This document shows positions 6,061-20,019 of a DNA stretch of 64,000 nt, piece by piece. The notes under the pieces were generated by a model. The model was not told where the DNA came from, did no database searches, and saw nothing but the letters and a program-made list of their open reading frames with translations. This DNA is from Macrostomum lignano. Lineage: Eukaryota. How positions within the stretch are numbered: position 1 is the stretch's first letter; each line of letters begins with the position of its first letter. The DNA lies in assembly GCA_002269645.1 (NCBI GenBank), contig NIVC01000004.1, positions 372,001 to 436,000 of the forward strand. Reading direction: 5' to 3'. The position numbers were made by a program, and so were the translations under genes.

Positions 6061-6637
6061 ACTACTAAGGACCCATTTATCCGTTGATTTTGCGAAGGTC
6101 CGTCGGGCTGATGTCGGCCTCTAGCACCGCGGCAAGGTGCTCCCTCGGGGTGTACCACCTCCCCCGGGGTGTACCTCCAGCGGGGTGGGCGTCCAGCGAG
6201 TGTACCTCCAGCGGGTGGGCCTCCCGCGAGTGTACATCCGGCCGGGTGGGCGTCCAGCGAGTGTACCTCCAGCGGGGTGGGCCTCCCTCGGGGTGTACAT
6301 CCGGCGGGGGGATTCCCGCCCCTCCCACCAATGTCGTGTGCACGCGGTTAGTGTAGGAAGGAAACCCCCGATGCTGACGCAGCCCTGTAGCTGGGGACAG
6401 AGAGCAGCCCCTGTAGCAGGAGGGGTAGTGCGCGGAGAGCCGCCATCCCCCGGTAGCTAGGGACAGATAACAGGCGGCCCCCCCTGTAGCAGTATGAGGT
6501 GGGGGTACAGAGAGACACGGGGTGCTGGGACAGAGAGTGCGTGGAGGCACCCTGCGTCGCCCCGGCATGTCGCAGCACGCGGCGTGGACAGAGAGGTAGT
6601 ATGAATCACACCCCCCGCGGAGAGAGCTTCCCCAGGC
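6061..6637 (+). repeat. Left TIR (~577 bp) of the Polinton-like element
   Basis: Reverse complement of 15961-16074 plus 19572-20019. Internal ~31-bp GC-rich units contain GTGTAC at 6150, 6169, 6200, 6230, 6261 and 6293. Confidence 0.93.
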
Positions 6638-6763
6638 CGGGGTGGTAGAGGGACAGACCGGCGGTGAGTGATAGAGAGCCCCCCCAGGCTGCAGAGGGAC
6701 AGACAGGCCGCGAGCAACGTGTTAATTCAACCATAAATAGAAGCAGTGTACAAAACCCTCTGT

Positions 6764-7543
6764 ATGGAGAACATGGAAGAGGGTATAACTGATAACCCCT
6801 ATTTCAGCAACGAGAGCGTGCGCGCCAGATTACCCCTCATTGAAAGATTGTTATCAGACACTAGGAAAAGAATCGAGGGATTGACCGCAAAGGAGCGCTT
6901 AGAATTCACACATCTAGCCCGGCTGGCATTCGTAACAGAAGTAAACATTGAGGAGAGAGAGGTGGCGTTGACTTGGGAGGAAGCAGAAGAAGCGATAAAA
7001 ACCCGGTCCTGTATGGTCACAGCCAATCTATGGAGTGCGGCAATACACCTCAATGACACGAGGGGGTTAATTGACACAGAGTTTGTTAGACAAGTTCACA
7101 CACGCGTGTGCAGAGGACTGCTCCGGAATGTGGGATCGTATAGAATTAAGCACGCCAAGCCAGCAGGCGCGAGTATGTATTACAGTGCCCCAGAAAATAT
7201 CGAACGGCAGCTGGTAAAATTAACTAGAGACATAAAAGAGCCACAAATCTTGCGTAATGCAGTAGTGACAGGAGCATATTTCCTAGAAAAGTTTCTCACC
7301 ATACACCCCTTTAGCGACGGCAATGGTAGAACTGCTAGGTTGTTATTATCAAAGTTGCTCAACCGGATTCTGCCAGAACCCGTATCATTTGCGTATGCTA
7401 ATAGAGACACATATCTCAACTGTCTTTACGAAGCGCGCAGCGGCAACCGGGGGCTCCTAGCGGCGTATTTACTTTTATCAATTGAGAGAACCGTTCTACA
7501 GTGGAGGGAATGGTTGGAAATCTGTTCAGACGGCAGCCTATAA
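6764..7543 (+). CDS. Fic/Fido-domain protein (putative AMP transferase), element cargo
   Basis: Complete catalytic motif HPFSDGNGRTAR and flap region GSYRIKHA. N-terminal helix FVTEVNIEE..LTWEE resembles the inhibitory helix of FICD-type enzymes. Confidence 0.9.
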   Translation: MENMEEGITDNPYFSNESVRARLPLIERLLSDTRKRIEGLTAKERLEFTHLARLAFVTEVNIEEREVALTWEEAEEAIKTRSCMVTANLWSAAIHLNDTRGLIDTEFVRQVHTRVCRGLLRNVGSYRIKHAKPAGASMYYSAPENIERQLVKLTRDIKEPQILRNAVVTGAYFLEKFLTIHPFSDGNGRTARLLLSKLLNRILPEPVSFAYANRDTYLNCLYEARSGNRGLLAAYLLLSIERTVLQWREWLEICSDGSL

Positions 7544-7577
7544 ATAAATAAAATTGGTATTTCTCAACAATATCGAA

Positions 7578-8443: not shown

Positions 8444-8535
8444 CAAAAACGCCCAGCCACCCCACCCTCCGCCCTAAGGGTATATAAGGAGGCGCTCAGG
8501 GTGCGAGACCCACTCTCAGCAACAGCAGCAGCAAC

Positions 8536-9216
8536 ATGGATACCGTTCAAGACTACAATAGTGTTAGGATCGACCTATTCTCTCTCAAGTCGAGAGGTCC
8601 AAGCTACAACGGAACCGAGACGTACGACATTGAGTACGACGAACAGGGCCCTCTCTATCTTGCCAATGCGACGCCCGTACTGATTGTCAAGGGTGTGAGA
8701 ACCGACAATGAAGGCCGCGAATTCATCATTCTTTCCCAAAAGCACTTGGAGAGTTGCATACCAGAAGCGTTCAATTCCGTGTGTCACCAGCTCTCTATCC
8801 AAGGAATGGCGCTATTGGGGTACAACCCCACTTTTGGCTGCGACAGCGCTGCATTCGGATTGGCTCACGACTTTAAAATGTACGACAAGAGCGGCAAGTT
8901 GTGCACCGACTACAAGAACAAGACGGGCTACTATAGAGTACTGTTCGCCCTAGACACGGCGGTGATTCACGACTCGGTTCTAACCGCGGTGCCGAAAATT
9001 CAACAACTGCAATTCATAGAAGCTCCCAAGCAGGCGTTTGACCGCTGCTACTGGATTCCACCGTTAAAAATCAAGGTAGGACGCAAGCGCGGAGCTGGTG
9101 GAGCTGAGCGGAAACAAAAGCAACCGAAAAAACCGCTTGCAGAACGTCGTGTGCGTAAACAGGGTGTTTTGCGCAAGGTGGAACCACCTACCGAACTTGG
9201 ACTGGGCGCGCGCTAG
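8536..9216 (+). CDS. Hypothetical element protein (226 aa), possibly OB-fold/ssDNA-binding, with basic C-terminal tail
   Basis: ATG ORF preceded by TATATAAG at 8481. Beta-rich core and K/R-rich tail (GRKRG...KQPKKP). Function is inferred only. Confidence 0.65.
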   Translation: MDTVQDYNSVRIDLFSLKSRGPSYNGTETYDIEYDEQGPLYLANATPVLIVKGVRTDNEGREFIILSQKHLESCIPEAFNSVCHQLSIQGMALLGYNPTFGCDSAAFGLAHDFKMYDKSGKLCTDYKNKTGYYRVLFALDTAVIHDSVLTAVPKIQQLQFIEAPKQAFDRCYWIPPLKIKVGRKRGAGGAERKQKQPKKPLAERRVRKQGVLRKVEPPTELGLGAR

Positions 9217-9616
9217 AACGTTTCATAGACCCCGGGCATTGTACAACCTGAGGATCGGAAAGTGTACAATAAACTTTTTCAAACGTTCATTATCGGCCAT
9301 TGTTTTTGGTTGCCAATCAACCAACGATGTGCTGCGTCTTTTTTCTCAATGTAAACCAAACTCTGTTGTTATCACTACCGGTACTTATCGTGCAGAAGTT
9401 AATGTTAAGCCAAACTTTTTCCGCCTTGCCAACTCGAGCTCGCGCTGGGTTGAGTGGGAGAGTGAGGTATTCAATGGGCTTGTAATAAAGTCCCCATTCC
9501 GCAAGGCCAAGTGCCTGCTGTGCGGAAAGAATGGTCGGTTAGTGTTCCTAGGAATACGAAACTATGACGAACTGTGTAAAATGTACGACCACGTGACTGC
9601 TATTCTGCAACTCTAA
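9137..9616 (+). CDS. Divergent TATA-binding-protein (TBP)-fold protein; no in-frame ATG at its 5' end (TTG at 9137, GTG at 9098)
   Basis: By-eye alignment to both TBP repeats: LQNVVC ~ LQNIVS; CTINFFKRSLSAIVFGCQS ~ TTALIFSSGKMVCTGAKS; WESEVFNGLVIK ~ YEPELFPGLIYR; NGRLVFLGIRNYDELCKMYDHVTAIL ~ [26 protein letters not shown]. Confidence 0.7.
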   Translation: MQNVVCVNRVFCARWNHLPNLDWARARTFHRPRALYNLRIGKCTINFFKRSLSAIVFGCQSTNDVLRLFSQCKPNSVVITTGTYRAEVNVKPNFFRLANSSSRWVEWESEVFNGLVIKSPFRKAKCLLCGKNGRLVFLGIRNYDELCKMYDHVTAILQL

Positions 9617-9654
9617 TTATGCTTTGCTTATAAATAAACAAAATATGCACATGT

Positions 9655-10044
9655 ATGCACGCAATGCTTACCACCTTAATAATGACAAACGGAATTTCTC
9701 GTCTTTGTTCTTGCCGTCGCGAGCTAGAGGAGCTCGGTGACGCGCGACCACATCGAAGGAGGGCCATTATTAGGGGAGCCGATAATGAGTTGATGCAGTG
9801 TCTGTGCGAGTTAAGTCACAATGTACTCAAGGGCAATATCGATCTATCCCCTAGACAGTTTGCAAGGTTGAAACGTTATAGAGAAGCCCTGCATGACATG
9901 GCCGACAAAAAACTGTCTATAAATAGGAAGAAGAATATGATACTATCGGACCCTCAAGTTGGAGGATTCCTACCAATTCTCGCCAAGATTGCTGCTCCGT
10001 TAATCACTGGACTGTTTGGTGGTCTGCTAGGACAACGACGTTGA
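9655..10044 (+). CDS. Conserved Polinton small core-like protein with adenovirus pX-like C-terminus
   Basis: Pattern LCELSHNVLKGNIDL...QVGGFLPILAKIAAPL is typical of a Maverick small protein. GGFLP is a putative adenain cleavage site. Confidence 0.75.
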   Translation: MHAMLTTLIMTNGISRLCSCRRELEELGDARPHRRRAIIRGADNELMQCLCELSHNVLKGNIDLSPRQFARLKRYREALHDMADKKLSINRKKNMILSDPQVGGFLPILAKIAAPLITGLFGGLLGQRR

Positions 10045-10046
10045 AA

Positions 10047-10672
10047 ATGGACAAGTACGTTGTGGTCCCCGAGGAGGAATTCAATCAGCTTAGACAGGGT
10101 ACTCCGCGAGAAATTGCCCCAAAATCGGAGTACGAAAAACTTGTAGAGTACAATGCAAAGCTACAGACCCAATTGGCTAAAGTAAAACCCCAAAAGACGA
10201 CAAAGCAGCTATTTTCTGATAGGCAACAACGTATATGGAATATACTAACAGAAAAGCACCCCAGCCTAAATTACAACCAATCGTGGGAAGTCGTTTTTGA
10301 TGGTGAAACTTGGGGTGGTAGCAACGTTTTTGATCTTCTACAAGCCGTCACCACCAACACTAATAATCACCCGAAATATTCGACCGCTTTCTGGGCTCTA
10401 CTAGACAAGGCCCGTATACCAATGTCTATGCTCGGCGGAAACAGCTCCCTGTGGAGGAAAAGAAGGTTGACCATTTGGTTGGTACCGACGATTACCGCGA
10501 TGAATATGAGCACACAATTGCGACAGACACCCGCGATTTAACGACCACGCGCAACAAAGGTGTAAATGCTATGCCCAAACTTGTGGATCAAGGTACCGGG
10601 GTGGGTAAATATCACGATTACCAACTAAGACCACCCGAGAAAAAGAAAAAATACGTGACTCTTTATAAATAG
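10047..10672 (+). CDS. Conserved Polinton hypothetical protein upstream of integrase; probably split by a frameshift (ORFs 10041-10541 and 10451-10672)
   Basis: WEVVFDGETWGGSNVFDLL...IPMSMLG resembles the motif of a common Maverick ORF. The overlapping second ORF supplies a plausible C-terminus. Confidence 0.6.
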
Positions 10673-10803
10673 AACCCTATTCCATACATAACCGCGCCTG
10701 GCGGTCATGGGCGCAGCAGCCGCCGCGTCAAAGCTTTGTGTAGACAACTCCCCAGCCGACATTACGTGCAACTATTCATGCTGCGCATCCACACTTGTTG
10801 TCA

Positions 10804-11882
10804 ATGAGGGCTCTAACCGCTCTTCGTCGAGTTTACGAACAAGGAGCCGCCGCTTTTTCAAATGCTGCCCGTGTCTATCAGGAGGCCAAACGTCTGGCGC
10901 CAAACCTGACAAGACGCCAAACCAGGGAATGGCTAGAAACCCAACCGAGTTACACCCGTCACCGGAGAGTCAACAGGACATTTAAAACGGGAAAAGTAAT
11001 GTCGGGAGGATTCATGGAAACTCTACAAGCCGATTTGATGGACATGTCGCGATACAAACGTTGGAATGACGGACATAAATATATACTAGTTGTTATTGAT
11101 GTGCTTAGTAAGCAGGCTTTTTGTAGGGCAATTAAACTAAAGAGTGATACCCCGCAGCGTTTGAGTCAATGTTGGCGAATGATTTCCCTGCCCGCCCCCT
11201 TTACCTTCACGTGGATCGGGGTACCGAGTTTTATAATCAGCGAATGCGCCGCATACTAAAAGACAATAATGTTAAAATGTACAGCACCAACTCTGTGTAC
11301 AAGGCAAACATGGCCGAGAGGCTGATTAGAACTCTTCGAAAGCGTCTGGCTCGCTACTTTGAGCACAACAACACGTGGCGTTGGGTTGACTACTTACCTA
11401 ATTTGGTAGGCAATTACAACAACACGACGCATTCTACTATTGAGATGAAACCGTCAAGTGTAGGGTTCCACAATCAGAAGCGTGTGTGGGAAAAGCTCTA
11501 CCCGGATCAGCAAAAAGACGACCCTGTATATAAAAAGGGGGATTTTGTGAGAATTTCGAAATCTCGCAGGGCATTCGACAAGGAGGCGTACGACATGTAT
11601 AGTGAGGAGGTGTACATTATATCCAAAGTTTGCCCTGGACCCCCACATTTTTATCGTATTTCTGATTTGTCTGGTGAAGTGATTGAGGGACGGTTTTACT
11701 ACAATGAACTGTCCAAATCTGCCCGACCCGATCGTTTTGTAATCAATAAAGTTTTGCGTAGAAACGTGTTAATAAATGGTGTTGCGCACCATTACGTTAG
11801 CTGGCGCGGTTATCCCGACACTTTTAATTCATTTGTACCTGTAAATGAAGTTATAAATATACGGCAACGTAATAATAACTAA
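10804..11882 (+). pseudogene. Retroviral-type (rve) DDE integrase with C-terminal chromodomain, frameshifted near 11140-11165
   Basis: LQADLMDM and YILVVIDVLSK lie in one frame. HVDRGTEF, NMAERLIRTL and the chromodomain (HYVSWRGYPDTFNSFV) lie in another. Confidence 0.92.
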
Positions 11883-11885
11883 TGC

Positions 11886-13025
11886 ATGGCTACCATGCAT
11901 CTCTTTCTGCCTAGTAATGCGTGCCCCGAGCACTATCCCGAAAATAATCCGGCTCATTATTTTATTAATTTACCGGACACTCTCCACTTTCCGAATCATG
12001 AGGTTTGCCTCGAACGGATCTACTTTACCAAAGAATTTGAATCTTTCAAAAAATCTATACCGATCACCATTCGCGAACAGGAGGGCCTCTTGACGGCTTC
12101 GTCGTTTGCAAGCCTTTGTCTCGCAGCGGGTCTGAAAACCCCTGAAGAATGTATTTCCGGCTTTCTAAACGGTATCCGATACGTTGAAGGGGATAATAAG
12201 AAAATTGTCTTTTTAAGAACATCCCCAACCGCCTTTATGATTGTGAATACTTCAAAATCCACCGTCGGCATCAAATTCCCGGATGGCCTACCCAAGGTGT
12301 TTAAACTAGTCGCCGGCTTCGAGTCTAATGAGGATCTACCTACTGAACTCGTATTACAAGCGGGGTGTGCAGCCTCCATCACCGCAGTTGTTGAGGAACC
12401 GACTGTACAGTCAATGGACCACGCTCCAATAATAAGACAAGTTACTAGCGCAGCGTCTGATCAAATCTTTCTTATGCAGGACGGATACTATAGTACACCT
12501 AAAAGAATGGTGGAGGAACTCAACGATTTAATTTGGAAACGGATCAAAGATCTCATAGCGGCTCCAGCACCTAGAACGGACTTTTTCGGATACAGCGAAG
12601 TTACGAATAGGTGTTATTACATCGGCTCGGTGGATTACATGTTTGGGCTGGGGCGCTTGACCAGCGTGCTTGGTTTCCCAGAGCATGATTATACAACCCC
12701 ATTTTTCGGTATATCGGAATTCTACGCAAACGCATCAATGGAATTAACCGGTGGAATACAAACAATGTACATCTATTCGAGCATAGTCGATTCTGTTATT
12801 GTAGGAGACGTTAAAGTTCCTCTGTTGGGAGCTATACCGATGGATCCTAAAGTTCAGGGCGGTCGCGAGTACTACGAGTTTGTCAATCCAGCATATCTAC
12901 CGTTGGTTAAGCACCCATTCAAAACTATTGAAGTACAAATTAACGATGATATGGGCAGGGATATGACAAAAGTAATGAGGGGCAAGACCGTCTTGAGCGT
13001 TAACATCCGCGAAAAGAAGCTATAA
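11886..13025 (+). CDS. Minor capsid protein (penton, single jelly roll)
   Basis: N-terminal LFLPSNAC..YPENNP.HY.INLP and C-terminal MYIYSSIVDSVIVGDVKVPLL...PAYLPL...IEVQIND motifs typical of Polinton pentons. Confidence 0.88.
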   Translation: MATMHLFLPSNACPEHYPENNPAHYFINLPDTLHFPNHEVCLERIYFTKEFESFKKSIPITIREQEGLLTASSFASLCLAAGLKTPEECISGFLNGIRYVEGDNKKIVFLRTSPTAFMIVNTSKSTVGIKFPDGLPKVFKLVAGFESNEDLPTELVLQAGCAASITAVVEEPTVQSMDHAPIIRQVTSAASDQIFLMQDGYYSTPKRMVEELNDLIWKRIKDLIAAPAPRTDFFGYSEVTNRCYYIGSVDYMFGLGRLTSVLGFPEHDYTTPFFGISEFYANASMELTGGIQTMYIYSSIVDSVIVGDVKVPLLGAIPMDPKVQGGREYYEFVNPAYLPLVKHPFKTIEVQINDDMGRDMTKVMRGKTVLSVNIREKKL

Positions 13026-13068
13026 ATAAACAGCACAGCCTCAGTAAACTATATCGTAGTGCTTAATC

Positions 13069-13413
13069 ATGCCTTCTATTCTGATTGGTGGAGCTTTGCC
13101 TGTTTTCGCAGGCGCCCAGAGGGGCAACGGTTTGTTTGGAAGCATTGCCCGCTTCGCGCTGCCAATTCTAAAGAGTTTTGGTAAAAACGTTCTCCGTCAT
13201 GGTACTAGAGCCCTAGCAACTACGGTTAACGATAGCCTCGAGCAAGGAGGCAATTTGAAAGAGTCTGTCCTGCGCAATTCTGTTCAGGCTGCCAAGGACG
13301 CCTTTAAAGACACGGTTACCCAAAGGGGTAGCGGACGAAGAAGAAAAAAGGCTCCGAAGCGTCTCAATTCAGACATTTTCAGCACTATAAATAAAAAGCC
13401 CCGCTTCAATTAG
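13069..13413 (+). CDS. Polinton small QRGxG protein (amphipathic, adenovirus pVI-like candidate)
   Basis: QRGNGLFGSIARFALPILKSFGK amphipathic helix, second QRGSG followed by RRRKK, located between penton and MCP. Confidence 0.75.
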   Translation: MPSILIGGALPVFAGAQRGNGLFGSIARFALPILKSFGKNVLRHGTRALATTVNDSLEQGGNLKESVLRNSVQAAKDAFKDTVTQRGSGRRRKKAPKRLNSDIFSTINKKPRFN

Positions 13414-13442
13414 ATTCGCCGAATCGATTCTGTCTACTAAAC

Positions 13443-14726
13443 ATGTCCGAGTGTCTGTGTACAAAGTCCGAGTTTGAGCTCTTTGCCCCTCGTGCTCACC
13501 AGATTGCAGCCGTAGGTTCAACTACTGAAGAAATCCACCCGGTTGCCAGCGTTGAAAATGCAAGTGTGGTCGAGTTTAGAATTGTGGGCGGCGAGACGTT
13601 TGTCGATCTTAATGACATTGATCTCGAGATTAAAGGTTGTATTAAGAGAGCTAATGGAGCCGATTTGGCGGCGGATTCAAACGTGGCGCCAATCAATTAC
13701 CTCTTGGAGACCATGTTCAAAAACGTGTCTCTTTCCATAAATGGTACACATATCGAGTCTAGCAACAACAACCACGCCTACAAGGCGTACATTCGTACAT
13801 GCTTGAGTTATGGGTCTGATTCAAAGTCTAACCAACTGCGGATGATGGGCTACGCTAAAGACGCTGGGGGTCAAATGGCTGCGGTTGGAAATCCTGGCTT
13901 TGTAACTCGCAAGGCGATGGCTGCCGGTTCTCGAACATTTCACCTGTATGGCCCTCTTAGTCTCGACTTTTTTGTCACCAACGATCGTATGTTGCTACCC
14001 TACACTGATATGGTGGTTACGCTCACTCTGCAAAATTCGGGATTCGTTGTGGAGAATCACGACGAAGGGGTTGATGCAAAGTTGGTTCTTCAAAGTGCAA
14101 AATTACACGTTCGTCGGGTAAAGGCTAACCCCCAACTGGCCTTGGAGATTGAAGAACAGCTGTCAACTCAGAATGCAGTCTACCCCATCGAGCGCCTCGT
14201 TGTACACAACACCTCTGTCGCTGTAGGAGTTCGCGACGTGTCAATCAATAATATTTTCCCGGAGCAGAAGCCTAAACTTGTCATTATGGGGATGGTAAAT
14301 AGTGCCGCATATAACGGGGTGGCCACCCATAATCCGTTCAATTTCGAGCCATTTGGGGCGGACAGTGTGGCCCTGTACAAGGACGGTGTCAGTCTGTGCG
14401 GTCAACCATTCACTCCAAGGTTCGCTGCCCAAAACTATGCTCGCGAATACGCCATGCTGTTTAAGAGCCTAGGGAAAATGAATCGCGATTTGGACATTGA
14501 CCTGTCATATTCGGATTATCGCGCCGGTTACTGCTTATTTGCGTGGAATCTAATGCCCGACATGGAACTGGGTGGACATAGCATGCCTCGCGAGAGAGGG
14601 AATCTTACCCTACAGATAAAGTTTTCTGCAGCCCTACCTGCCGGGATTAACGTTTTGGTGTTTGGTTACTTTGACAACGCGGTGCAAATCACTAGAGGCC
14701 GCCAGCCCATTCTGGACTACGTATGA
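13443..14726 (+). CDS. Major capsid protein (double jelly roll, 427 aa)
   Basis: CTKSEFELF, VVEFRI...FVDLNDIDLEIK, HAYKAY, and NPFNFEPF...GYCLFAWNL motifs of the Polinton MCP. Intact ORF. Confidence 0.93.
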   Translation: MSECLCTKSEFELFAPRAHQIAAVGSTTEEIHPVASVENASVVEFRIVGGETFVDLNDIDLEIKGCIKRANGADLAADSNVAPINYLLETMFKNVSLSINGTHIESSNNNHAYKAYIRTCLSYGSDSKSNQLRMMGYAKDAGGQMAAVGNPGFVTRKAMAAGSRTFHLYGPLSLDFFVTNDRMLLPYTDMVVTLTLQNSGFVVENHDEGVDAKLVLQSAKLHVRRVKANPQLALEIEEQLSTQNAVYPIERLVVHNTSVAVGVRDVSINNIFPEQKPKLVIMGMVNSAAYNGVATHNPFNFEPFGADSVALYKDGVSLCGQPFTPRFAAQNYAREYAMLFKSLGKMNRDLDIDLSYSDYRAGYCLFAWNLMPDMELGGHSMPRERGNLTLQIKFSAALPAGINVLVFGYFDNAVQITRGRQPILDYV

Positions 14727-15160
14727 ACACGTTGGAAATTTTGGAACGTTTAAAACTACCTGTGGAAGTGCGCGTTTGCCCTCTTGACAGAATTCCTGCA
14801 CCTGTTTACCCTGCGGCATATGTAATTAATTTTGACACGGGCAATCTACCAGGCACCCACTGGGGACTGATTTGCCTACACGATGATAAGAGTGTGACAT
14901 TTTTTAACCCCCTGTGTATTGAACCCGTGCCGGAATTGCTCTCGGCTTGGTTCTCGAAGCATGTACATTCACCTGTTGCTATGAATCGCCACCCTGTTCA
15001 ACACCCTCTAAGTGTAGCGTGTGGGCCGCATGTGATTTTTGTGGCCGAAAAGCACTTTTTAGAGGGGTTGTCGATTGAAAAGATTTTAAGGGAATGTTAC
15101 TCCACCAATCTGCTTGAAAATGATTTGATGGTTCGAAAACATGTTCTACAAATAAAATAG
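14723..15160 (+). CDS. Adenain-like (C5/Ulp1-fold) cysteine maturation protease
   Basis: AYVINFD...PGTHW, FFNP, and Q...S..CG motifs. ATGA overlap with the MCP stop. Confidence 0.9.
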   Translation: MNTLEILERLKLPVEVRVCPLDRIPAPVYPAAYVINFDTGNLPGTHWGLICLHDDKSVTFFNPLCIEPVPELLSAWFSKHVHSPVAMNRHPVQHPLSVACGPHVIFVAEKHFLEGLSIEKILRECYSTNLLENDLMVRKHVLQIK

Positions 15161-15195
15161 TTTTTAATATTTGGAGTGTCAACTCGCCCTGAAAA

Positions 15196-15824
15196 TGTAC
15201 CAAACAATTGATCCTGACGCTCTAAAGTTTGCTCCAAATACTTCGGCGATTTTTGCTGGTGTTAACCAGAGCGGAAAAACAACTCTTGTTAAAGAATTGC
15301 TGCGAAACGAGTTTTTTCAGGACCCTAAGCCTGTTCGCGTTGATTGGTTTGGGCACTATCCAGACCCGGAACTGTTTGAATTACCGTACCCTGTCAATTT
15401 TCGCTCGTCTACATTTAACCCTGAAACCTATGTTCCCGCTCCGAATATTCTACTCGTTGTCGATGATCAAATGCAAGCCATGGAAAAAAACGCTGCTTTT
15501 ACCGCATTTTTCACTCGCAAAGTCAGCCATGTGGGATTCCGGCTTTGGTACCTTGTACAAAACCTGTTTGCCAAGGGCAAGGAGCACCGCACCCAATCCC
15601 TTAACGCAAACTACCTTGTATTGTTCCGCAATGTACGGGACGTTAGTACAGTCGCCCATATTGCAAAGCAGCTTGTCCCCGCTAACCCAAAAAGTTTTGT
15701 TCAAATGTACGAAGACGCCACTAGGGAGCCCTACTCCTACTTGATTGTTAATTGCTTGCAGAACGCATCTGTTCGCTACTATGCTAATGTGTTGGGGCGC
15801 TACCCCGTAGTTTATGCTAAATAA
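15196..15824 (+). CDS. FtsK/HerA-superfamily (A32-like) genome packaging ATPase
   Basis: Walker A GVNQSGKT, Walker B LLVVDD, followed by YLVQNLF and NANYLVLFRN. Confidence 0.93.
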
Positions 15825-15960
15825 AACACTGTTGGAGAGCTTTGCTCTGTTTGCCGGATGGCCTGAACCTGAAACAACTAAATTACGTGTTTTTTCTTTT
15901 CAAGTCTTCTACTGCCCTGGGGGAGCTCTCTCCGTGTGATTCACTGCCTCTCTGTCCCGC

Positions 15961-16074
15961 GCCTGGGGAAGCTCTCTCCGCGGGGGGTGTGATTCATACT
16001 ACCTCTCTGTCCACGCCGCGTGCTGCGACATGCCGGGGCGACGCAGGGTGCCTCCACGCACTCTCTGTCCCAGC
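15961..16074 (-). repeat. Inner part of the right TIR, interrupted by the P element
   Basis: Reverse complement of about 6524-6637. Confidence 0.9.
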
Positions 16075-19000
16075 CACAGACCAAGAAATATAACTAGACT
16101 GCGCATCCCGCATTTCTTGCTTGGGCTTGTTTTTGACCAAATGACAGTGGAAAAAATGGTCCCTCTCTCCCTACTCGAAAACGATCGATAATTGTGCTTG
16201 GGCAAGAAGTTAGGGTACAGGCCTGCTTTTCTTTCCGCCTGCGTTGATATGTAGCTATATATTAAAGTGGTCTGGGGCCAAAAATATAAACTTATAAAAC
16301 ACATACTTGAAATACAAAGCAAGCTGCTTCAGTCTAATCTAAATCAATCCTCACCAAATCGAACTGCCATGGAAGAATCTAATTCTTCAAAACTGCCTAG
16401 CAGAAAAAGTCACGGCAGCTTTTGCTGCGCTCTAGGCTGCTCGAACAACTCGTCAATGTCTCCGGCAGTGTCCTTCCATTTTTTTCCAAAAGACACTGAA
16501 ATGAAGAGAAAGTGGCTGGTTGCGCTCCGACGCAAGGAGTTCAAACCATCGGCGACCACCCAAGTCTGCTCGGTCCACTTTGCAGAGTCTTGCTTCAAGG
16601 AACAACTAGCCGGCTTTCTGCCCACCACAAGAAGGCGGCTGTATCCAAATGCTGTTCCTTCTATCTTCCCGACGCTCCCTGACCGCCTGCAGCCTGTTGA
16701 AAAGAAGCGAAAAACAGCCACCGCCGCCGCCGCCGCTGCTCAGGAAGTTGACTTTGCTGCATTTTTTAAAGCGCCGGAATGTAGCAAGACGAAGGCTCAG
16801 CCAACTGACACGGAGGCAGATGAACCAGAACAACCCCTACAAGAACTGCATGCCAACTGTGTGGCCAGAGAACTATTCGAAGAAAAGGTGAGAGTCCTAA
16901 AAAACCTGAGGCGCAGATACAAAAGGCTTTTGGCTGCTCATAAGAGATCTAAGAAAAGTGCTAAGGCCATTGAATTCCTGCGTCGGACGGTACAGAGCAA
17001 GTACAGAAAAATTCGATCTCTGCGCTCAAAGCACAGGCAAATTAAACATAGAGCCAAAACATTGAAGGACGCAATTCTGGATCTAAAGGCCAAGTGCATG
17101 TTAAACGAAGCAGCGGCATCTCGATTGAATTTCTTGACCTCCGATTCACTGCTGAGCAGCATCGTGCCTTGCAATAGAAAAAGGACAAAGAGGTTCTCTG
17201 ACGAAGTGCGCAAATTCGCCTCTACATTGCATTTCTATAGTCCGAAGGCTTATGAGTATGTACGAAAGTACTTTCAGCTTCCACATCCTGCGTCACTTAG
17301 AAAATGGCTCTCAAATGCAAAGTGCTTTCCAGGGTTTTGCGATCAGGCTTTCCAGGAACTTTCGCGGCGACGCAGCTCCACTGACGGCCAAGCCTTTGAC
17401 TACTGCAACGTTGTTGCTGATGAAATGTCGCTAGAGTCGATGATTGAATGGAATTCAAGCGAAGGTATGTTTTTTGGCTACGTTGACAAAGGTGATGGCA
17501 AACCAAGTGATCAGGAGGCGTCTTCGGCACTGGTAGTGATGGCAGTGGGGCTTAAGAGCTATTGGAAGCTGCCTTTAGGGTATTTTCTAGTGAATGGAGT
17601 TGACGGCAAATTTCTTTCGAGCGTTGTAGAGGAATCCATTCAGCGACTGTACCAGGTTGGCGTCATAGCAACATCATTCACATGCGATGGAACTCAGCAC
17701 AACATTCGAGCGATCGAACTCCTTGGCTCCAGGATAAGTTCTCCGAACGAGGTCGTCGCCTGCTTCCCGCACCCCTGCGATCCTAGCATTCAGGTTGCAG
17801 CCTTCCTGGATGTGCCTCACATGTTAAAGCTGATTCGCAATCAGTGGCAGTCACTGGGAAGATTTGTTTGGCCGAACAGAGGAAATATTGAATGGAAATA
17901 TGTTTCCATGTTGCAGCAAGTACAAGAAAGTCATGGACTCCGACTTGGAAACAAGTTAAGCAGGCATCACATCAACTTTGCTAATTTAAAGATGAAGGTC
18001 TATTTGGCATCACAACTGTTTAGCAAGTCAGTGGCCGACTCTTTGCGATGGGTGCATCAGCAAGGTGTGATCGGATTTGAGCACTCTGATGTGCTAGTCA
18101 CCGCAGATTTCGTTGAGCACATGAATGATTTGTTCGACGCTTTCAATTCCAAGCGGCTGGTCAGTTATGGCGCCAAAATGGCGCTTAGAGCTGACAATCA
18201 GTCGGATTGGATCGATTTCTTCTCTAGCTCGATCGAACTTCTCCGTAGCCTTGAAACTCCGGCTGGCTGTAAGATAGTAGAAACCGCAAAGAAGACTGGC
18301 TTCCTAGGCTTCATCACCAACTGCCATGGCATTATGGAGCTCGCTAAGTATTTATTTTCGACTGGCGAATTCTTCTTTCTTTGCACTTACAAGCTTTCGC
18401 AGGATTTTCTCGAACTGTTTTTTAATGCAGTAAGGCTACGAAATGGCTGGAACCAAAACCCAACGCCCACGCAATTTCGCTCAGCATTCAGGCAGCTGTT
18501 GGTGCATGCCGGAGGTGGAATTCTACAGTCCGTGAGTCCGAATGTGAGGCAGCAGGATGCCACTATTCAGTTATCATTGTCTTGTCTGCCATCATCATCA
18601 GGACAGCATCCATGGAAGCAGATGAAAGCTCAAAATGAAATGGGACTGAGTCTGGGTTCAATCCAACACTGCAAGAATGCATCGGTGTGTGAAATTTGCC
18701 AGTCCATCGTGTGCTATATCGCAGGCGCGGTCGTCCGAAGAATGATGAAAGCAGTTGAATGTGCTCCGTGCAGGTCAGCTCTGATCGCAAGCTCTGAGAC
18801 GCCAGGAGCTTCACGCGGACCATGCTCACTCGTTGCCATAAAAAATGTTGTGAACAAGGAAGGAACTGGCGGCCTGATTTTTCCTAGCAGCAATGTCCTG
18901 CGGGTGCTGCTCAATGCAGAGACTGTTGTTCGGCGTGCCAGCTACAGCAGCGGATTCTCTAGTGATGTAGCTGTTCAGGAGATTCTGCGCATGTCAATCG

Positions 19001-19563
19001 ATCTGTTCCCTGAACTGGACTCTCATTCGGCATCCGCGAGTATCAGCATTGAGTCTCACAAGCTGCATTTGATTCGAGTAATGGCTATGCTTTTTATAAA
19101 TATTCGAATGAAGAAGCTGGCTAAGGATCTTTCACGCGCTGGAAGAAAACCCGGCAAGAGGCAAAGGCTGCTTCGAACAGCGATTTTTCTTAATTTGTAA
19201 TCAGCGTATTCGCATATGGAGGCTGGTAAGTTATGGCTTCAATGCATTCTGTTTAAGCTTATTCCCGTGATAAACTATATATTTGCCATTAAATGCGTGC
19301 AAAAAATTCTAGATAAATTAAAAATGAATCTGTAGTTGTTGATTTGTTAATCCTATTTCTTACTGAGTCTGAATTTTCACTAGTTACGAACATAAAGAAA
19401 AAAGAGACCCCGACAAGCTGAGTTGGCTGAGGGTAAGAAGAAAGGCCCGGGCACAATTATCGATCGTGGGGGAGTGGGCACTGGGGTGCCACTTTTCCTA
19501 CTAGGAAAAAGGCACAACTTTTTTTACCCTCATGCGCAGTCTAGTTATATTTCTTGGTCTGTG
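16075..19563 (+). mobile_element. P-superfamily (THAP9-like) DNA transposon nested in the Polinton right TIR
   Basis: 32-bp TIR CACAGACCAAGAAATATAACTAGACTGCGCAT. 8-bp TSD GTCCCAGC at 16067-16074 and 19564-19571. 17-bp subterminal inverted repeat at 16181-16197 and 19451-19467. Confidence 0.96.
16369..19200 (+). CDS. THAP-domain P-element transposase (943 aa), intronless and apparently intact
   Basis: THAP zinc finger (CCALGC...FHFFP...W...VCSVHF...AVPSIF). Catalytic-region motifs ADEM, CDG, DVPHMLK and SQDFLELFF. Confidence 0.95.
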   Translation: MEESNSSKLPSRKSHGSFCCALGCSNNSSMSPAVSFHFFPKDTEMKRKWLVALRRKEFKPSATTQVCSVHFAESCFKEQLAGFLPTTRRRLYPNAVPSIFPTLPDRLQPVEKKRKTATAAAAAAQEVDFAAFFKAPECSKTKAQPTDTEADEPEQPLQELHANCVARELFEEKVRVLKNLRRRYKRLLAAHKRSKKSAKAIEFLRRTVQSKYRKIRSLRSKHRQIKHRAKTLKDAILDLKAKCMLNEAAASRLNFLTSDSLLSSIVPCNRKRTKRFSDEVRKFASTLHFYSPKAYEYVRKYFQLPHPASLRKWLSNAKCFPGFCDQAFQELSRRRSSTDGQAFDYCNVVADEMSLESMIEWNSSEGMFFGYVDKGDGKPSDQEASSALVVMAVGLKSYWKLPLGYFLVNGVDGKFLSSVVEESIQRLYQVGVIATSFTCDGTQHNIRAIELLGSRISSPNEVVACFPHPCDPSIQVAAFLDVPHMLKLIRNQWQSLGRFVWPNRGNIEWKYVSMLQQVQESHGLRLGNKLSRHHINFANLKMKVYLASQLFSKSVADSLRWVHQQGVIGFEHSDVLVTADFVEHMNDLFDAFNSKRLVSYGAKMALRADNQSDWIDFFSSSIELLRSLETPAGCKIVETAKKTGFLGFITNCHGIMELAKYLFSTGEFFFLCTYKLSQDFLELFFNAVRLRNGWNQNPTPTQFRSAFRQLLVHAGGGILQSVSPNVRQQDATIQLSLSCLPSSSGQHPWKQMKAQNEMGLSLGSIQHCKNASVCEICQSIVCYIAGAVVRRMMKAVECAPCRSALIASSETPGASRGPCSLVAIKNVVNKEGTGGLIFPSSNVLRVLLNAETVVRRASYSSGFSSDVAVQEILRMSIDLFPELDSHSASASISIESHKLHLIRVMAMLFINIRMKKLAKDLSRAGRKPGKRQRLLRTAIFLNL

Positions 19564-19571
19564 GTCCCAGC

Positions 19572-20019
19572 ACCCCGTGTCTCTCTGTACCCCCACCTCA
19601 TACTGCTACAGGGGGGCCGCCTGTTATCTGTCCCTAGCTACCGGGGGATGGCGGCTCTCCACGCACTACCCCTCCTGCTACAGGGGCTGCTCTCTGCCCC
19701 CAGCGACAGGGCTGCGTCAGCATCGGGGGTTTCCTTCCTACACTAACCACGTGCACACGAGTGGGAATCCCCCCGCCGGATGTACACCCCGAGGGAGGCC
19801 CACCCCGCTGGAGGTACACTCGCTGGACGCCCACCCGGCCGGATGTACACTCGCGGGAGGCCCACCCGCTGGAGGTACACTCGCTGGACGCCCACCCCGC
19901 TGGAGGTACACCCCGGGGGAGGTGGTACACCCCGAGGGAGCACCTTGCCGCGGTGCTAGAGGCCGACATCAGCCCGACGGACCTTCGCAAAATCAACGGA
20001 TAAATGGGTCCTTAGTAGT
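19572..20019 (-). repeat. Outer part of the right TIR
   Basis: Reverse complement of about 6061-6523, with a few substitutions and one ~15-bp indel. Confidence 0.93.

Follow-up and report, generated by a model that had tools for sequence, protein, structure and literature searches.

Beta- and gammaherpesviruses encode a TBP-like domain as part of a larger protein (KSHV ORF24, EBV BcRF1, HCMV UL87), and this fused domain sends host Pol II to late promoters (PMC7498053). Polintons, Mavericks and adintoviruses share with the element described here inverted repeats, a 6-bp duplication, integrase, capsids, protease and ATPase (PMC8502044). TBP is not new to Polinton-like elements: a TBP-like gene of a Polinton-like virus is listed in the legend of Fig. 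5, on MELD viruses and relatives (PMC8502044). In the available text of that article TBP appears solely in this legend, with no function, splice or promoter word attached, and the supplementary file is without TBP. A term search for TBP and TATA found neither in the available text of PMC11131425, 10.64898/2026.06.19.733378 and 10.64898/2026.10.13.758929. The literature searched, with most subscription journals, Repbase and the supplements of preprint 10.1101/697771 outside its scope, held nothing on Polinton TBP function or a bipartite Polinton and no earlier account of what we report below, a probable splice fusion, covarying promoter words and a two-segment layout. Of interest here are the means by which Polintons, which are without an RNA polymerase of their own, time their capsid genes, and whether animal Polintons need a helper.

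Here we analysed a window of 64,000 nucleotides from the flatworm Macrostomum lignano (contig NIVC01000004.1, positions 372,001 to 436,000); all coordinates refer to this window. The genes between the repeats are all on the + strand: a Fic gene, two ORFs, gene U, the TBP frame, two small ORFs, integrase, capsids, protease and ATPase. The frame of the element is as follows.

6061 to 6651, + strand: left terminal inverted repeat, with the 6-bp target-site duplication GATCCA directly 5'
6764 to 7543, + strand: accessory Fic-domain gene (PF02661, E = 8e-14; HPFSDGNGR motif)
9655 to 10541, + strand: orf6 (basic) and orf7
10804 to 11882, + strand: retroviral-type integrase that carries a chromodomain; a frameshift interrupts it in the window copy
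11886 to 15824, + strand: minor capsid, small basic ORF, major capsid, protease and packaging ATPase
15947 to 20019, - strand: right terminal inverted repeat, interrupted, with GATCCA directly 3'
16107 to 19531, + strand (approximate limits): P-element/THAP9-type transposon, foreign to the Polinton, inserted in the right inverted repeat

Inverted repeats, a 6-bp duplication, a retroviral-type integrase, ATPase, protease and capsids are thus all present as in Polintons. A sequence-only reading had taken the TBP frame to be encoded by such an element, and the repeats and the target duplication bear this out. The labels capsid, protease and ATPase follow from sequence alone, namely the order of the genes, their motifs and their resemblance to a second Polinton lineage (lineage II, below). 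The integrase gave weak rve and chromo Pfam matches, and the structural module has 27-38% similarity to lineage II. We take orf6 to be pVII-like. The element occurs in two subfamilies, A and B. The stretches of subfamily B that were retrieved gave no match to the Fic gene. Between the subfamilies the minor capsid gene (11886-13025) has diverged much more in its middle (~40%) than the other core genes have (75-88%). The P-element/THAP9-type transposon holds an open frame of 943 aa.

The TBP frame is open from stop to stop over 178 codons (9080-9616). All motifs that had been aligned by eye with the two TBP repeats fall within it (LQNVV, TINFF..SAIVFGCQS, WESEVFNGLVIK, NGRLVFLG and YD..TAIL).

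9137 to 9616, + strand: TBP-fold coding region, 159 codons (9137-9613), 157 after the acceptor, without an upstream in-frame ATG

The proposal of a self-contained gene from 9098 to 9616 had to be abandoned. Position 9098 is GTG, which we rejected as a start codon, and the first ATG of the frame is found only within its final 11 codons; therefore the frame is not a self-standing gene as drawn. PF00352 matched with E = 1.2e-4, though only in the C-terminal repeat and with 22.3 bits against a gathering score of 22.9 bits; the Pfam match that had been predicted was obtained in this partial form. The subfamily B protein had no PF00352 match in the Pfam search. A phmmer search of the PDB returned 18 sequences at E<=10 (best E = 0.0034), of which 17 are named TBP or TFIID and the remaining one is labelled only ECU04_1440. 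In the ESM Atlas 29 of 30 matches belonged to TBP clusters (best 0.94), with recognition under the tool's mark. An AlphaFold2 model built from four sequences (pLDDT 71.5, pTM 0.56) showed the two-repeat saddle of the TBP family. Foldseek matched it to 44 PDB structures at E<=0.001 (TM 0.68-0.76, best E = 3.9e-9), with TBP in all matches listed, as the sequence-only reading had anticipated. The best viral matches in BFVD (E ~1e-7) scored lower than cellular TBP structures. At the level of predicted structure this confirmed that 9137-9616 encodes a diverged two-repeat TBP-fold domain.

Conservation of the frame in other copies had been set beforehand as a condition for this identification. In the genome there were 92 protein matches, ~40 of them full length without stops, which form subfamilies A and B. 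The 159 codons read through to the stop at 28 of 30 loci checked, and the frames of A and B are 76-78% identical (dN 0.14, dS ~1.9, dN/dS ~0.07). The TBP frame is under purifying selection. A chance ORF is ruled out by the dN/dS of 0.07. A retrocopy of host TBP is also ruled out; host TBP and a TLF-like gene sit elsewhere in the genome. In a tree of 14 sequences, lineage I, i.e. the lineage of the window element, grouped with P0001, P0002, P0003 and P0005 (support 92/97), while lineages II and III were unplaced. The candidate P0007 turned out to be a repeat protein and was dropped. Scans of viral and metagenome contigs outside this genome confirmed no relative.

Alignment to host TBP showed which residues have been kept: N69, V71, F116, F190, V213 and the stirrup glutamates E186/E188, in what we take to be yeast numbering. 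F99 and F207 are lost, and N159 and both Thr (124, 215) are changed. Of the DNA-facing set, two of four Phe, one of two Asn and none of two Thr remain, fewer than the TBP family has; around the second lost Phe the alignment may be off by one residue, with Phe at neither position. A partial loss of this kind, with the first Asn retained, had been proposed from the sequence. Given the changes at two intercalating Phe, at the second Asn and at both Thr, the protein may bind DNA weakly or only with the help of a partner. The first stirrup is shortened relative to host TBP. E108, E110 and F112, presumably the stirrup positions that contact TFIIB, are invariant in all six relatives, i.e. the acidic stirrup of the TBP family is present. 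Judged by the aligned residues, the TFIIB face of the domain is conserved and its DNA face remodelled.

Two further TBP-bearing Polinton lineages reside in this genome. Lineage II (L113-L115, G000:C114 and seven other contigs) is a complete Polinton of ~16.8 kb with PC4-like gene, integrase, capsids, one further ORF, a TBP gene with its own ATG, and polymerase. Its TBP is 31% identical to host TBP, matches PF00352 at 1e-23 and aligns poorly to the lineage I TBP; judged from eight contigs opened, it accounts for most of the at least 150 scored PF00352 matches. Lineage III (L151-L152, G000:C2285, L159-L165) is a Polinton with a long polymerase, a deoxynucleoside kinase and a dUTPase-like ORF, and it also has an intron-containing U-like gene and a TBP-like frame without ATG.

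How may a domain without a start codon be expressed? The preceding gene U offers a possibility.

8536 to 9216, + strand: gene U, 226 aa unspliced; residues 1-180 conserved, followed by a variable basic tail
9076 to 9142, + strand: predicted phase-0 GT-AG intron of 67 nt, linking U codon 180 to the TBP fold

By eye only, U resembles an OB-fold/SSB protein. It had no match in Pfam, PHROG or the PDB and no usable match in the ESM Atlas, and a single-sequence structure model reached a pLDDT of 35. Four homologues were identified among 604 outside candidates (ENA/Logan), which with two from this genome gave six sequences. In all six, conservation runs to I-K-V, after which sequence and length diverge. 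The invariant V is compatible with GT, as is the residue that follows it (G, G, R, C, C, R) with G at donor +5 (background 0.17). In the window U codon 180 ends AAG/GTAGG and the fold opens at TTGCAG/AAC, both in phase 0. The predicted intron measures 67 nt in subfamily A and 196-197 nt in B, and the sole YTNCAG common to both ahead of the fold is in phase 0. Five U tails carry a +1 reading of the TBP start. The tail of P0009 and the start of P0001 fit as +1 overlapping frames over 47 codons (maximum of 5 in 300 shuffles), whereby the pairings P0009-P0001 and P0011-P0002 are based on frame compatibility and equal contigs of 3894 nt. The I-S-E of P0011 allows TTTCAG and no NTG start at the fold start. 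In lineage III the TBP-like frame (hhalign 36%, E = 3.7e-4) is again without ATG, has an in-frame TTTCAG and lies behind a weak U homologue, whose tail has a phase-0 GTAAGT. The first exon of this U homologue was recognized by BLASTP (3e-4); a two-sequence U profile did not detect it. Canonical-looking introns are also seen in the polymerase gene of the partner element (below). Because no ATG precedes the fold, U conservation ends at a GT donor and the YTNCAG is in phase, we regard a spliced U-TBP fusion as the likely product and alternative cis-splicing as its probable source.

Other routes into the frame have to be weighed against cis-splicing. The main rival is trans-splicing onto the same acceptor, since flatworm-type leader genes with ATG at their end are present in the host: a spliced leader ending AUG, joined at 9142, would start a stand-alone mini-TBP with the same role. 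A search with the 3' end of a published flatworm leader gave 71 matches in the genome (control 0), and three of ten inspected precede a GTAAG donor, i.e. are SL RNA genes. In the other seven the leader-like sequence stands before non-donor sequence; these resemble retrocopies of trans-spliced mRNAs (L133-L138, L171). The acceptor matches the trans-splice motif [T/C]TNCAG given in PMC8629364 and is in phase 0 in lineages I and III, and an AUG supplied by the leader is documented in flatworms (PMC9851317). We nevertheless regard this route as unlikely. It leaves unexplained the donor-like constraint at the end of the U domain in six of six homologues, trans-splicing is described as prevailing where an upstream cis donor is absent (PMC8629364), and no loose contig end was seen at 9143 in contigs of four out of 24 runs, which are RNA only by guess. 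The frame could also be read unspliced, if ribosomes began at UUG (9137) or shifted by +1 from the U frame. A and B both retain TTG at 9137 and P0008-P0010 are compatible with it, the U and TBP frames overlap in the +1 register, and one of 30 copies has both in a single frame, which may be a homopolymer error. Yet P0011 rules out NTG at the fold start and lineage III has none, and in subfamily B the U frame terminates ahead of the fold with no evident common slippery motif. Reading without splicing is therefore very unlikely in our view. The same four runs speak for it to some extent: their contigs cover nearly the whole element, contain no U-TBP joint, and two cross the entire predicted intron unspliced, while a third covers the acceptor. 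Against cis-splicing stand, besides these contigs, a donor GTAGG that deviates from the consensus GT[G/A]AG stated in PMC8629364 and a short pyrimidine tract. A search for fused proteins of greater length was negative, which counts as weak evidence, and the search for U homologues returned proteins of U size only.

The element contains a recurrent promoter word, TATAAATA, and a different box ahead of the U-TBP unit.

7539 to 7546, + strand: TATAAATA before orf2
8478 to 8489, + strand: GGGTATATAAGG box preceded by CACCC boxes, a putative early promoter for the U-TBP unit
9629 to 9638, + strand: TATAAATA before orf6, overlapping an AATAAA able to end the U-TBP transcript
10664 to 10985, + strand: TATAAATA and a small conserved Cys-rich ORF starting MG

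Further copies of the word are at 9918 inside the orf6 coding sequence, at 11852 in the end of the integrase gene and at 13021 and 13386 in the capsid-ATPase block, where TACAAATA precedes the ATPase. The Cys-rich ORF (10707-10985) lies directly behind its TATAAATA and overlaps the integrase start. Subfamilies A and B each have seven copies of TATAAATA on the + and none on the - strand (shuffle means 0.18 and 0.15; maximum 2 in 300), and the whole window has ten against 0.66 expected. The word is located 34-129 nt before the ATG, upstream of 7/8 genes in A and 6/7 in B. Three of its copies fall in coding sequence whose third positions are no more than ~50% identical between A and B; it is preserved there despite synonymous sites near saturation. 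The U-TBP unit is preceded by GGGTATATAAG and not by TATAAATA. Lineage II has YTTAAGA in six of eight upstream regions and TATAAATA in none, with like placement in seven elements (C4909 was left out of these counts). The TBP gene of lineage II also lies behind YTTAAGA. In lineage III TATAAGYA or CTAAGCAG stands upstream of five of seven genes, a pattern chosen after looking. An AT-rich Polinton without TBP match, used as a single control, had no dominant word, its best 7-mer being present in 4 of 12 regions. The canonical TATA consensus is TATAWAWR, which TATAAATA fits. Because it is a canonical TATA box and overlaps AATAAA at four of seven sites, lineage I alone is no proof of a private reader. 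The different words of the other two TBP-bearing lineages point to lineage-specific late promoters.

In none of six copies with both ends (the window, C181, C5162, C2210, C4201 and C296) did the stretch between the repeats hold a protein-primed DNA polymerase; the polymerase that a Polinton/Maverick has in the same element is missing here. The terminal pattern of the element was located at 13 places in the genome. The first 32 nt are identical in capsid/TBP elements (C2210, C355, C5162) and in polymerase/PC4 elements (C491, C986). Both classes are ~10 kb long without insertions (~10.5 kb for the capsid/TBP segment) and have 6-bp duplications. The polymerase elements (L153-L155 on G000:C491, L178-L179 on C986, L183-L184 on C3516 and L148-L150 on C1263) span 9.7-10.4 kb and encode a protein-primed polymerase, intron-containing by look, and a PC4-like gene; they had no capsid or integrase match. 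Ends of the C491 type are those of subfamily A, and the ends of subfamily B resemble another polymerase-only element, C1263. The early box is common to polymerase and TBP elements, the GGGTATATAAGG/CACCC design also preceding the PC4-like gene, and TATAAATA was found inside none of three polymerase elements. The PC4-like gene had at least 100 matches, and none of at least 64 capsid matches had a partner PC4-like match within 30 kb (both counts are lower bounds, from 150 of 279 capsid and 150 of 263 PC4-like candidates). An element with TBP and without polymerase, and a ~10-kb polymerase/PC4 element with the same first 32 bases, suggest a bipartite Polinton whose parts would complement each other.

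The observations can be assembled as follows. Host factors would fire the early GGGTATATAAG promoter. Intron retention would yield U with its basic tail, and splicing a 337-aa U-TBP. This protein would bind TATAAATA and bring TFIIB via the kept stirrup. Replication would be provided in trans by the polymerase/PC4 element, which itself would borrow integrase and capsid. The start-less TBP domain, likely part of a spliced U-TBP fusion, would then likely serve the element as a late-promoter factor of its own. It would recruit host TFIIB and Pol II to the TATAAATA copies ahead of the capsid, packaging and integrase genes, a proposal for which we see an even chance. The sequence-only reading had left a choice between redirection and inhibition of Pol II initiation; redirection is the better fit to the kept stirrup glutamates and the common promoter word, and inhibition the poorer. 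Inhibition would correspond to a decoy, a TBP protein without useful DNA binding which sequesters TFIIB (or TFIIA, NC2, Mot1) while host TBP reads TATAAATA. A degenerate DNA face next to an invariant TFIIB stirrup would suit a decoy, and a word that fits TATAWAWR is readable by host TBP. Against this, the word is invariant, with no scatter among TATAWAWR variants, and it is not that of the early box; lineage II combines a non-canonical word with a different TBP, and the Polinton without TBP match has no dominant word. We think a decoy quite unlikely. A tentative proposal, to which we assign somewhat less than an even chance, is a bipartite integrating animal Polinton with one segment for capsid, integrase and U-TBP with a private late promoter and a same-ended segment for polymerase and PC4, each lineage's TBP being paired with its own word. 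The TBP element might instead be a non-autonomous derivative of the ordinary kind, served by whichever Polinton polymerase is at hand and not part of a dedicated pair. Complete Polintons with polymerase and capsid are present in the same genome (lineages II and III), and the sequence common to TBP and polymerase elements is confined to ends and early promoter. This we consider rather doubtful: lineage II and the C3469 type have other ends, the partner is flanked by 6-bp duplications even though it is without integrase, end sequences covary in two element pairs, and partner PC4-like matches are absent from the 30-kb vicinity of the scored capsid matches.

In comparison with known systems, the predicted two-repeat saddle is like that of cellular and archaeal TBPs (PF00352; 4rod_B, 1vok_B, 2z8u_B) at a TM of ~0.7. 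It has kept the first Asn-x-Val, one Phe in each repeat and the E-x-E of the TFIIB stirrup; in contrast to host TBP, to which it is 26% identical, the domain probably is the C-terminal part of a fusion. TBPs of Nucleocytoviricota have the same fold (BFVD E ~1e-7) at <=17% identity. Unlike Polintons, Mavericks and adintoviruses, the TBP element has no internal protein-primed polymerase. Bidnaviruses are single-stranded DNA viruses with a parvovirus-type capsid and no integrase. Here both parts are integrated, with a Polinton-type capsid and an integrase, and matched ends are the sole likeness. Bidnaviruses are described as having a protein-primed polymerase and a genome in two segments whose termini match, as here (PMC8502044). 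A two-segment Polinton, if true, would be a new genome organisation for the group, parallel to the bipartite bidnaviruses. With three TBP/word pairs side by side in this genome, specificity can be put to the test, and they would be natural cases of re-specified TBP; if true, the pairs of coexisting lineages resemble orthogonal sigma factor-promoter pairs. The herpesvirus vTBP is our working analogy, with likeness at the fold level only, and by this analogy the TBP domain would most likely work like the late-gene TBP of herpesviruses. ORF24 is a large protein that works in a complex of six; it binds the CTD of Pol II, and the word it reads is TATT, whereas in the TBP element no partner complex was seen and the TFIIB stirrup is kept. 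A self-encoded TBP with a lineage-specific word would be a concrete early-to-late switch, in parallel to herpesvirus late transcription.
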